Origin: Escherichia coli
GTDB taxonomy: Bacteria; Pseudomonadota; Gammaproteobacteria; Enterobacterales; Enterobacteriaceae
Reading direction: 5' to 3' (one strand)
Length of the DNA stretch: 64,000 bases
NCBI RefSeq assembly: GCF_003334405.1
Contig: NZ_QOWM01000014.1
Of the stretch, positions 31,857 through 32,767 are shown piece by piece. The notes below the pieces were generated by a model that saw only the letters and a list, made by a program, of their open reading frames with translations, was not told the origin of the DNA and made no database searches. Each line of letters begins with the position of its first letter. The stretch's first letter is position 1. Position numbers and translations under genes: made by a program.

Positions 31857-31950
31857 AAAATAAATATATTCTGAAAAAATATGCCGACTCTTGCATGAGA
31901 GTGGGCATATTGCCATGCTGACCGGAGACTCATACAAGGATGTAAAATTT

Positions 31951-32331
31951 ATGTTACGTATATTTATCCCAACATCTAACGGTAAGATTTCCAGACGTCG
32001 TTATATATTTTCATTTATTTTAATAAATTTCATTTTTGCCTTTCTTATTATCTTTTTTAACGATGGAGAAGCAGGCTTTCTTGTTATAGTCTCTACCATC
32101 GTACTCCATTATCTCGTCATCAACATGAATTGCCAGCGACTCCGTGATAGTGGTTTCATCTATATAAAAACTTATGTTTTTGGTACATTAGCAGTATATA
32201 TCATCTCTATCATCACAATGATAGCCGAAGATTTTGCCTGTTCAGGCAATGGTTCGATGATTTTTTTGATTTGTTATTTTTCCACTTTCAGTATGCTAAT
32301 GCTTGCACCTACTGATTCATCAAAACAATAG
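31951..32331 (+). CDS. yigG: Small inner membrane protein of unknown function (DUF805-like)
   Basis: Track ORF 146 aa (TTG-started) trimmed to [20 protein letters not shown]... (126 aa); AT-rich, hydrophobic. Confidence 0.8.
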
Positions 32332-32344
32332 TTATGGAGTATTT

Positions 32345-32725
32345 ATGAGTAAGGAATATATGAACGATGGTTCATTAAGTGAAAAATGGAAATACCGATT
32401 TAATTTTTATGATCAACATGGTTTTCCTGGATTCTGGGGGGCAACACCAGAATATAAAGCAGCATTTAAAGCATTAAAAGTAAGACAACGCTTAACTATT
32501 CAAATGAATTTCATTGCTTTCTTCTGTTCCTGGATATATTTATTTGTCCTGGGGTTATGGAAAAAAGCAATTATAGTTCTATTACTTGGTATTCTATCTC
32601 TATTTGTTGGTGCACTAATTGGCGTTAACATTCTGGGAATTGCCGTAGCAGCCTATGTTGCTGTTAACACGAACAAATGGTTCTATGAGAAAGAGGTAAA
32701 AGGGTTAAATACCTGGAGCCTTTGA
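32345..32725 (+). CDS. yigF: Small inner membrane protein of unknown function (DUF2628-like)
   Basis: Track ORF 140 aa trimmed to MSKEYMNDGSLSEKWKYRF... (126 aa); ggag SD 7 nt upstream. Confidence 0.8.
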   Translation: MSKEYMNDGSLSEKWKYRFNFYDQHGFPGFWGATPEYKAAFKALKVRQRLTIQMNFIAFFCSWIYLFVLGLWKKAIIVLLLGILSLFVGALIGVNILGIAVAAYVAVNTNKWFYEKEVKGLNTWSL

Positions 32726-32767
32726 ATAACAGGTGGCTTAGCCAGACTAAGCCACCGCTCTCGTTTT

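Follow-up and report, generated by a model that had tools for sequence, protein, structure and literature searches.

The yigG and yigF genes of Escherichia coli K-12 form an annotated and published AT-rich islet whose binding and silencing by H-NS are already known. The yigF/yigG "promoter island" has been scored as H-NS bound in all ChIP-chip studies and called foreign by two predictors (PMC3661553), an intragenic promoter within yigG is repressed by H-NS (PMC7229825), and both genes lie under a silencing extended protein-occupancy domain, or EPOD (PMC8282354). In Salmonella, deletion of a gene annotated yigG (STM3954), which responds to chlorine stress, reduced attachment and chlorine tolerance (PMC3579871). 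These phenotypes are modest (PMC3579871). Since the 82% identity to K-12 given in that paper is nearer that of YigF (84–85%) than that of YigG (58%), it is uncertain which Salmonella gene was deleted (PMC3579871). Another described system is the DUF3289/DUF943 pair, a colicin-M-like T6SS effector and its immunity protein (Geller et al. 2024, PMC11148199).

The DNA that we analyzed, hereafter the window, is one strand of a 64,000-nt stretch of E. coli (assembly GCF_003334405.1, contig NZ_QOWM01000014.1), in which a 0.92-kb AT-rich islet fills the space between two core genes, rarD and corA, that face each other tail to tail. The islet is 100% identical to MG1655, and the RefSeq annotation of that locus gives the same two genes as we found in the window. 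What is new here is the ancient slot shared across genera, its polymorphism over 5426 E. coli genomes, and the presence of a DUF3289/DUF943 module behind a 147-nt corA duplicate. Our literature searches found no description of the slot polymorphism, of the albertii-type allele, or of the link to DUF3289/DUF943, and nothing relevant on the rarD-corA slot as a hotspot.

An AT-rich islet between rarD and corA

The preliminary description of this DNA had pointed to a stretch that is AT-rich relative to its flanks, foreign in composition, and occupied by two tandem genes encoding hydrophobic proteins of 126 aa each, all of which is borne out by measurement. The GC content of 31857–32760 is 34.7% (0.347), compared to 52.8% (0.528) across the window, that is, z = −5.7 relative to all 904-nt windows of the 64 kb (mean 0.528, SD 0.031). 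The global minimum among these 904-nt windows is 0.340, starting at 31811, and GC falls below 0.42 at just one further locus within the 64 kb. In a 200-nt profile, GC stays at 0.305–0.355 over 31900–32699 and is back to 0.49–0.53 on either side. Codon usage, which had been proposed as a check, deviates strongly at synonymous sites, with a GC3 of 0.29 for yigF and 0.31 for the annotated yigG (0.33 for a longer ORF call, 31915–32331), against 0.58 ± 0.07 for the 55 ORFs of the window. Since rarD has a GC3 of 0.62 although it also encodes a polytopic membrane protein, the AT-richness of the islet is not explained by amino-acid composition. Computed hydrophobicity agrees with the earlier reading of both proteins, and the spacer between their genes is indeed 13 nt (32332–32344). 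Homology between K-12 and O157-type sequences ends at 31845, 11 nt short of the rarD stop codon, and restarts exactly at 32768, the corA stop. The features of the locus are listed in Table 1.

Table 1. Features of the rarD-corA interval, in window coordinates
Feature	Coordinates	Strand	Basis and remarks
rarD, left core flank	30966..31856	+	Annotation; 3' half with hitch-hiking divergence
Variable AT-rich islet	31846..32767	.	All DNA from the conserved part of rarD to the corA stop codon; GC 0.31–0.36 throughout
Strong hairpin 3' of rarD	31878..31911	+	AUAUGCCGACUCU-UGCA-UGAGAGUGGGCAUAU, without a U-run
yigG	31951..32331	+	ORF; RefSeq "protein YigG"; 126 aa, predicted four-helix inner-membrane protein, divergent DUF805-like
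yigF	32345..32725	+	ORF; Pfam DUF2628; 126 aa, predicted inner-membrane protein
Bidirectional intrinsic-terminator-like hairpin, yigF-corA gap	32732..32756	.	GGTGGCTTAGCCAGACTAAGCCACC; 10–11 bp, T-rich tails on both strands
corA, right core flank	32768..33718	-	Annotation; last 147 nt duplicated in strains with the DUF3289/DUF943 module

The arrangement of the two genes suggests a single two-gene operon, probably closed by the terminator-like hairpin facing both directions. An AAGGA motif lies upstream of the yigG ATG, and a GGAG motif is found 7 nt 5' of the yigF ATG, which, together with the short gap after the yigG stop, fits one operon. The terminator-like hairpin is part of the islet and falls outside the conserved flank when K-12 and O157-type sequences are aligned. 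As for the hairpin 3' of rarD, the RNA fold of 31850–31955 has an energy of −24 kcal/mol (z = −3.4 vs. shuffles), and the hairpin is kept in CFT073-like genomes that lack the genes; its candidate roles are a rarD 3' end, a stabilizer, or another element. An Rfam scan of 31500–34200 returned chance-level matches only.

Going by the literature cited above, the K-12 islet would be coated by H-NS and silent in laboratory conditions, with spurious intragenic promoters inside. A crude count of the H-NS consensus motif is uninformative, with 3 sites in the islet and 73 across the whole window, and a sigma-70 consensus scan finds fewer sites than in shuffles, which speaks neither for nor against the published promoter island. 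As in H-NS-silenced xenogeneic DNA, the islet is AT-rich at synonymous sites as well as overall, and its distribution is patchy, with an ST131-type allele close to that of E. albertii.

The YigG and YigF proteins

Of the two domain families that the preliminary description had proposed to search, DUF2628 was confirmed for YigF, while DUF805 gave only a marginal match to YigG (Pfam PF05656, E = 0.023 for the K-12 protein). When run against 12 YigG-like sequences, the DUF805 profile scored 3 at E ≤ 0.001 and 9 at E ≤ 0.1. The AF2 model of YigG (pLDDT 90) has helices at residues 15–38, 42–66, 72–92, and 100–118 and, after its orthologues, retrieves with Foldseek almost only DUF805 proteins, at E = 0.1–1 and TM 0.5–0.7. 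Likewise, the weakest matches of a YigG family profile search are typical DUF805 sequences. Moreover, the N-terminal R..Y segment and the cytoplasmic R-L-R-D-x-G loop of YigG resemble what we take to be the DUF805 signature. The assignment of YigG to DUF805 is nevertheless weak. The family itself is tiny, with 39 matches among 1.84 billion representatives. K-12 YigG scores 255.6 bits with the NCBIfam YigG equivalog model NF008474 (PRK11371), whose cut-off is 217; the ST131-type protein, at 210.4 bits, narrowly misses it, and a YigG-like ORF of O157 type reaches 26.5 bits only. YigG may be a compact inner-membrane protein of four helices that branched off from DUF805 and evolves fast.

YigF matches DUF2628 (PF10947) with E = 5.2e-10, over positions 9–91 of the 93 in the model and residues 17–117 of the protein. 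Its AF2 model (pLDDT 88) retrieves 143 structures from AFDB50 at E ≤ 0.001 (TM at most 0.97), and every listed match is a DUF2628 protein or a close fragment; a Foldseek search of the PDB gave no meaningful match. YigF belongs to the DUF2628 membrane proteins, and both its basic N-terminal segment and its C-terminal tail are conserved. In the models of both proteins, the conserved residues appear to lie at the cytoplasmic face, and very little of either chain is predicted to reach the periplasm. YigG and YigF were also considered as paralogues, which was ruled out by a profile-profile comparison of the two families (probability 0.2%).

Age and polymorphism of the slot

The order rarD, yigG-like, yigF-like, corA recurs in Salmonella Typhimurium, Superficieibacter, Atlantibacter, two Kosakonia species, E. 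whittamii, and one further genome, L098. The pair is therefore ancient, as the preliminary description had supposed, and did not arrive recently. In all genera in which they were found, yigG and yigF lie next to each other; at L093, another locus, the two reading frames share 4 nt and lie beside corA, with a left neighbor other than rarD. Across four genera, the GC3 of the pair is 0.28–0.44, compared to 0.59–0.71 in the flanks. Protein identity between genera is 30–58% for YigG and 45–85% for YigF, against 93–97% for CorA and 84–89% for RarD, and dN/dS between two E. coli alleles is 0.20 for yigG and 0.15 for yigF. The pair thus diverges several-fold faster than its flanks, yet is under purifying selection. 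In a scan of 100,044 representative genomes using two peptide patterns, only a handful of enterobacterial genera are found among the best 80 of 138 relatives.

Within E. coli, the pair is one state of a polymorphic slot. Among 5426 genomes, the K-12 allele (at least 95% identity) is found in 2461 (~45%), a divergent ST131/albertii-type allele, ~77% identical to that of K-12, in 565 (~10%), and an unrelated O157-type cassette in 1464 (~27%); the remaining ~17% have none of the three. The pair is thus absent from ~45% of the genomes. Neither a flank-like composition nor universal synteny, which the preliminary description had named as grounds for abandoning its proposal, was found: GC deviates strongly, and the pair is present in only ~55% of complete E. 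coli genomes. The 99-aa membrane ORF of the O157-type cassette matches neither the YigG nor the YigF family, nor any Pfam family. A CFT073-like genome bears a deletion scar that retains the 5' end of yigG, and IS1 copies in some strains are secondary insertions. The same interval carries DUF3289/DUF943 in 2627 of the 5426 genomes, about half. In the O157 and EC974 loci, a corA' pseudogene forms 147-nt direct repeats that are 94.6% identical; in E. whittamii, an orphan DUF943 gene lies directly 3' of yigF, and in Atlantibacter, corA' and rarD' fragments persist between yigG-yigF and DUF3289/DUF943.

Identity between K-12 and ST131 drops from ~98% in the flanks to ~77% in the islet, and the divergence tapers into rarD and corA. 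In rarD, it is 88–94% at 31350–31700 and 98–100% further upstream, and dS is 0.169 for rarD compared to 0.076 for yigI. The ST131-type yigF is 99.5% identical at the nucleotide level to that of E. albertii, while the adjacent corA is 93.9% identical. Judging from these sequences, the ST131-type allele has clearly been transferred between species (E. albertii-E. coli). Alleles and alternative cassettes are exchanged through homologous recombination within rarD and corA, and this exchange also crosses species boundaries.

Origin and function of the pair

Taking these lines together, function included, the explanation that we consider quite probable is an ancient, AT-rich, H-NS-silenced yigG-yigF operon in an exchangeable rarD-corA slot. 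As for function, we tentatively suggest that YigG and YigF work together on the cytoplasmic side of the inner membrane, as an accessory module that is dispensable and expressed only under certain conditions, perhaps with an envelope or surface-stress role rather than a transport or enzymatic activity. Any role must be dispensable, since ~45% of E. coli lack the pair. The AT-richness could instead have arisen in a native, never-transferred pair by AT-biased mutation of silent, poorly expressed DNA, reinforced by H-NS coating. The pair does occupy this slot in five genera or more, in Kosakonia and L098 its GC3 is nearer the host value, and the K-12-Salmonella divergence of yigF is close to that of rarD (78% vs. 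80.7% nucleotide identity), which is compatible with vertical descent. We nevertheless find this origin unlikely, because GC3 is 0.28–0.34, ~4 SD under the neighboring genes, including the membrane protein gene rarD, the ST131-type allele moved between species, most other enterobacterial genera have no relative among the 80 of 138 listed from the two peptide patterns, and the YigG family is so small. A vehicle was also sought. As stated in the preliminary description, there are no flanking repeats or mobility genes, only short AT-rich chance repeats and no transposase or integrase ORF, and the islet does not display the integrase or transposase, direct repeats, and tRNA target of a mobile genomic island. 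Matches labeled as plasmids were chromosome-sized records or carried chromosomal neighbors such as recQ, pldA, and uvrD. Nothing in the matches points to carriage of the pair by a plasmid or a phage. An anti-phage defense or superinfection-exclusion module, left over from a mobile element, would also be AT-rich, H-NS silenced, and polymorphic and encode small membrane proteins. It is very improbable, since none of eight slot proteins (YigG, YigF, and six others) matches PADLOC or PHROGs, neither an integrase nor any att-like repeat or phage gene is present, and tblastn against phages finds only two short unannotated records (1.6–3.5 kb) with both genes adjacent, as in the Salmonella chromosomal locus.

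Another possibility is a role in competition, in which YigG and YigF would serve either as orphan immunity proteins or as a membrane toxin-immunity pair, directed against membrane-targeting toxins delivered by contact or by a T6SS, and would be kept at a locus where such modules accumulate. Small polytopic membrane proteins with fast divergence, deep allelic lineages, and unrelated alternative membrane cassettes would fit, as would the T6SS effector-immunity pair (PMC11148199) in the same slot and the orphan DUF943 right behind yigF in E. whittamii. However, neither protein carries a domain resembling a toxin, and in none of the loci examined does the pair adjoin a T6SS, Rhs, or CDI gene. In the models, variable residues appear to be in lipid-facing helices and conserved motifs at the putative cytoplasmic face, which fits relaxed constraint, not diversifying selection, and dN/dS is well under 1. 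The adjacency to DUF3289/DUF943 could be explained by a tandem merger of two slot alleles, as suggested by the corA' and rarD' fragments in Atlantibacter, and we regard an immunity role as improbable. It is a long shot that the rarD-corA gap is a dedicated Enterobacteriaceae competition locus, where YigG/YigF-type pairs and the O157-type cassette would be interchangeable membrane immunity or exclusion cassettes beside DUF3289/DUF943, their alleles under frequency-dependent selection, spread by flank-mediated interspecies recombination, and held by H-NS until needed. Finally, the pair lies beside the 3' end of corA in every locus, even in L093, which lacks rarD at left, as might be expected of small membrane proteins modulating the neighboring Mg2+ channel CorA. 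This role is highly unlikely, since the genes are convergent with corA, without co-transcription, they are missing from almost half of E. coli genomes, and the same CorA (WP_000947159.1) accompanies the K-12 allele, the ST131 allele, the O157 cassette, and the deletion, with nothing co-varying.

The finding of the islet in K-12 carries little weight by itself, and the value added here is modest but concrete. An H-NS-bound, AT-rich islet has retained a foreign-looking composition in a single slot since before the Escherichia-Salmonella split, and its age is relevant to the question of whether a "xenogeneic" composition must always point to recent transfer. The interval also serves E. coli as a compact slot for recombination, in which we count at least four states and a clear exchange between E. 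albertii and E. coli ST131, and the location of two y-genes beside a validated toxin-immunity module offers a lead on their function.

Among known systems, the DUF3289/DUF943 pair shares with yigG-yigF the rarD-corA interval, AT-richness (GC3 of the module 0.23–0.35), and a two-gene make-up, but it differs in its clear toxin domain and 147-nt corA duplication, shows no sequence relation to YigG/YigF, and is absent from the window. YigG may share the four-helix membrane topology of DUF805 proteins, which are inner-membrane proteins of the YhaH/YhaI type, but the Pfam score of the K-12 protein is under significance, and its clade is very small and fast-evolving. With the DUF2628 homologues of Pseudomonas (~40% identity), YigF shares the invariant motifs KW..RF.F, LGLWKK, and N...Y.K..K. 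In the enterobacterial branch of DUF2628, a YigG-like gene invariably accompanies the DUF2628 gene beside corA, whereas more distant members occur singly in a variety of contexts; crude gene calls detected no YigG-like partner beside the distant genes of Pseudomonas, Pantoea, and Proteus, whose neighbors vary, and the pairing may therefore be lineage specific, not obligatory. The K-12 locus of the promoter-island, H-NS, and EPOD literature (b3818/b3817 of MG1655) has the same genes and the same AT-rich island, and there is no difference in sequence between the two.

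Composition and gene content of the islet

The AT-rich islet at 31857-32760, which holds yigG and yigF between rarD and corA, has a GC content of 0.347 versus 0.528 for the whole window (z = -5.7 among all 904-nt windows) and is the lowest-GC stretch of its length in the 64 kb. In a 200-nt profile, GC stays at 0.31-0.36 over both genes and recovers sharply within rarD and corA. GC3 falls to 0.33 in yigG and 0.29 in yigF, compared with 0.58 +/- 0.07 for 55 ORFs of the window, and rarD, though likewise encoding a polytopic membrane protein, has a GC3 of 0.62. The AT-richness of the islet sits at synonymous sites. 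Only one other locus of the window falls below 0.42; it holds the GlmZ sRNA gene (48530-48736, minus strand; Rfam RF00083, 218 bits), placed between an ORF ending at 48482 and another starting at 49161.

The window is E. coli K-12-like, and a 1.2-kb query around the islet is 100% identical to MG1655-derived genomes; the RefSeq gene order of that MG1655-type locus is pldA(-), yigI, rarD, yigG, yigF, corA(-), ysgD(-), yigE. The ORF calls give two small genes of equal length separated by a 13-nt spacer, no mobility genes are present among the ORFs of the window, and a repeat search returned no meaningful repeats flanking the islet, all as the preliminary description had stated. The hairpin between yigF and corA looks like a bidirectional terminator. 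Farther along, the yigE-uvrD gap (34853-34998; 147 nt in K-12) contains a REP-like palindrome at about 34880-34935, and in O157 AR-0427 and EC974 an extra gene of the SAM hydrolase/SAM-dependent halogenase family directly follows yigE; the gap is a candidate for another small variable slot, 2 kb from the first.

Features of the islet and its flanks in the window
Feature	Position	Strand	Basis and remarks
rarD	30966-31856	+	ORF call and annotation
Strong hairpin just 3' of rarD	31878-31911	+	z = -3.4 vs shuffles
yigG	31951-32331	+	ORF, 126 aa; AAGGA 5' of start
yigF	32345-32725	+	ORF, 126 aa; GGAG 7 nt before start
Hairpin between yigF and corA	32732-32756	both	25 nt, perfect stem, T-rich tails on either strand
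corA	32768-33718	-	ORF call and annotation

The locus, whose sequence is identical to the annotated and published one, is already known. The 78 "promoter islands" described for MG1655 include the yigF/yigG region, which is shown in Figure 1 of the paper and is listed there as foreign according to both Nakamura et al. and Lawrence and Ochman, and as H-NS-bound in all ChIP-chip studies considered (PMC3661553). Moreover, Warman et al. illustrate the spurious, H-NS-repressed promoters of horizontally acquired genes with an intragenic promoter in yigG (PMC7229825), and Freddolino et al. describe a small extended protein-occupancy domain that silences yigF-yigG (PMC8282354, Fig. 7C). A crude count of H-NS consensus sites in the islet was uninformative. 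The preliminary reading of an old, acquired or H-NS-silenced module is essentially the published one. What was observed holds up, and so does its interpretation, the H-NS coating and silencing part being taken from the literature.

The YigG and YigF proteins

YigF matches Pfam DUF2628 (E = 5e-10) over nearly the full model, and this profile evidence clearly assigns it to DUF2628. Its AF2 model is confident (pLDDT 88); the AFDB50 matches listed for it are all DUF2628 models or close fragments, and a comparison with the PDB gave no match. Invariant residues, in comparisons reaching from E. coli to Pseudomonas, form three clusters, one in the basic N-terminal segment (K14, W15, R18, F19, F21), one corresponding to an LGLWKK motif and one in the C-terminal tail (N110, Y114, K116, K119); the helices at residues 78-108 can vary freely.

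As for YigG, it passes its own NCBIfam equivalog (NF008474; 255.6 bits, cut-off 217), and its match to Pfam DUF805 reaches only E = 0.023. Among 12 YigG-like sequences, three score E <= 0.001 against DUF805 and nine E <= 0.1. Searching 1.84 billion representative proteins with a profile brought up only 39 relatives, the weakest of which are typical DUF805 sequences, and the AF2 model (pLDDT 90), a four-helix bundle, has as structural neighbors beyond enterobacterial orthologues almost exclusively DUF805 proteins, with weak scores. Given this marginal E value, tiny family and weak neighbors in sequence and structure, we treat YigG as a putative small, fast-evolving offshoot of DUF805, whose membership is not proven. 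Its near-invariant residues (R15, R63, R65, D66, G68) lie at the N terminus and in the loop that joins helix 2 to helix 3; we place both, by the positive-inside rule, on the cytoplasmic side. That YigG and YigF form one family was rejected, there being no relation between the two families. A distant DUF805-like relative of YigG occurs on a metagenomic contig (L096, 1773-3671), in a segment of plasmid-type appearance that encodes its own Hha and H-NS, together with the small membrane protein Pmp3, ParA and a FitA-like antitoxin.

Polymorphism and exchange at the rarD-corA interval

The main point hidden from a description made without comparisons is that the slot between rarD and corA is polymorphic. 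Among 5426 complete E. coli genomes, 2461 (about 45%) carry the K-12-type islet at an identity of at least 95%, 565 a divergent yigG-yigF allele typified by ST131 (556 of them at >=99%), 1464 (about 27%) an unrelated O157-type cassette and, by subtraction, about 925 (17%) none of the three. The O157-type cassette, found in O157:H7, O111:H8 and many others, has a minus-strand ORF for a 99-aa membrane protein, for which there is no family assignment, and a 128-aa YigG-like ORF (2216-2602, plus strand, in the O157 AR-0427 locus L003; NF008474 E = 5.5e-6) with a conserved INI..KRIRDTG motif. RefSeq records of the cassette (O157 AR-0427 and 1431-1464 other E. coli) leave the YigG-like ORF unannotated and call just the neighboring "hypothetical protein." The two coding sequences are the exact limits of the variable interval; homology to this locus is lost 11 nt ahead of the rarD stop codon and regained at that of corA. 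The one locus of the "none" class examined, from a CFT073-like O6:K2:H1 strain, carries a deletion and is a derived loss: the hairpin next to rarD is retained, as is a 5' fragment of yigG, which lost its start codon through a separate 38-nt deletion and is joined to sequence that follows the corA duplicate in EC974. IS1 copies sit inside the islet (window 31900-32740 equivalents) in several independent strains, MB50, AHM9C61I, 2018-02-2CC and SCAID WND1-2022, with both K-12-type and ST131-type alleles affected. Many truncated YigG and YigF database proteins probably stem from IS1 insertion or contig breaks.

A DUF3289/DUF943 module, shown to be a colicin-M-like toxin and its immunity protein for which T6SS delivery has been proposed (PMC11148199), is present in 2627/5426 genomes, with intact corA on one side and a 147-nt copy of the 3' end of corA on the other. 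The duplicate, a pseudogene fragment 94.6% identical to the last 147 nt of corA (window 32768-32914 equivalent; L003/L006, L005 and L013), is present wherever the module separates yigF, or the O157 cassette, from corA. Atlantibacter has the order yigG-yigF-corA'-rarD'-DUF3289-DUF943-corA (primes denoting fragments), and the retained rarD fragment gives this the look of a tandem fusion of two alternative alleles of the slot. In E. whittamii an orphan DUF943 follows yigF.

The pair is old, as had been proposed, since it is shared in the same slot by Escherichia, Salmonella, Superficieibacter, Atlantibacter and Kosakonia. Scanning 100,044 genomes, each standing for one species, with two peptide patterns yielded, among the best 80 of 138 YigF relatives, a few enterobacterial genera (Escherichia species, Superficieibacter, Atlantibacter, Kosakonia) and, farther away, only DUF2628 genes that stand alone and share about 40% identity, in Pseudomonas, Pantoea, Proteus and others; the scan missed Salmonella, although it is pair-positive. 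The rarD-YigG-like-YigF-like-corA order is kept in the close genera, in Salmonella Typhimurium and in one more genome, and on one metagenomic contig the two genes overlap by 4 nt and adjoin corA, with a different left neighbor. A further contig (L007; 1.6 kb, labelled "uncultured Alistipes sp."), from a Bacteroidota metagenome bin, has 100% protein identity to E. coli rarD-yigG-yigF-corA and is almost certainly a binning contaminant. Across genera, identity is 93-97% for CorA, 84-89% for RarD, 45-85% for YigF and 30-58% for YigG; two Kosakonia species share 99% for CorA and just 61-64% for the pair. Every genome with the pair has it AT-rich: in Escherichia, Salmonella, Superficieibacter and Atlantibacter its GC3 is 0.28-0.44 versus 0.59-0.71 for the flanks, and in Kosakonia it is partly equilibrated.

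Within E. coli, the ST131-type and K-12 islets are about 77% identical between flanks at about 98%. Between them, dS reaches 0.70 in yigG and 1.25 in yigF versus 0.08-0.17 for yigI, rarD and corA, and dN/dS values of 0.20 and 0.15 for yigG and yigF, respectively, indicate that both alleles are under purifying selection. At the nucleotide level, ST131-type yigF is 99.5% identical to that of E. albertii, with the adjacent corA at 93.9%, and 74% identical to the K-12 allele, which is farther than Salmonella is from K-12; by these identities, the ST131-type allele is not compatible with vertical descent. The divergence spreads into the 3' half of rarD (88-94%) and the 3' end of corA (92-94%) before identity returns to 98-100%, the footprint expected of replacement by homologous recombination in flanking core genes.

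Possible role and competing explanations

The present analysis shows a two-gene unit encoding two compact inner-membrane proteins, which is of strong foreign-type composition, old, fast but constrained in its evolution, dispensable and exchanged by flank recombination; according to the literature, it is coated and silenced by H-NS and has spurious promoters. As a whole, we consider this anatomical, regulatory and evolutionary account likely. YigG and YigF may act together, their genes lying side by side in every case, either 13 nt apart or overlapping by 4 nt. Their site of action may be the cytoplasmic side of the membrane, to which the conserved residues of both seem to map, and they would be expressed under particular conditions only. 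A role in envelope or surface stress is a specific and tentative guess. Phenotypes for the pair come from Salmonella only, in which deletion of a gene annotated yigG reduces attachment and chlorine tolerance (PMC3579871) and causes slight hypermotility (PMC4219756). This "yigG" is given as 82% identical to K-12 (PMC3579871), a value that fits YigF (84-85% between Salmonella and K-12) and not YigG (58%), so that the deleted gene may be the DUF2628 one. The "sirA" of the same paper is described with the homologues EvpB/ImpC/TssC1, that is, a T6SS sheath protein, and both names may be misleading there.

On origin, the pair might instead be native and never transferred, made AT-rich by mutation bias and silencing. 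We regard this as a minority possibility, though difficult to dismiss in the case of the K-12 allele, whose yigF is 78% identical to that of Salmonella at the nucleotide level, close to the 80.7% of rarD and hence compatible with vertical descent. On function, the effector-immunity module next door and the allelic diversity would suit an immunity or competition cassette, which is nonetheless improbable, because no toxin partner or T6SS linkage was found at any locus, dN/dS is well below 1 and variation is concentrated in lipid-facing helices. Phage defense, for which PADLOC and PHROGs profiles gave no matches to YigG or YigF, is without support and very improbable; equally slight are the chances that the pair modulates CorA, an idea contradicted by a CorA protein that is identical in all slot states. 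For the exchangeable, silenced two-gene unit that we favor, the population and comparative picture offers useful context and a cheap functional lead, and the islet behaves as expected for accessory islets at convergent gene ends.
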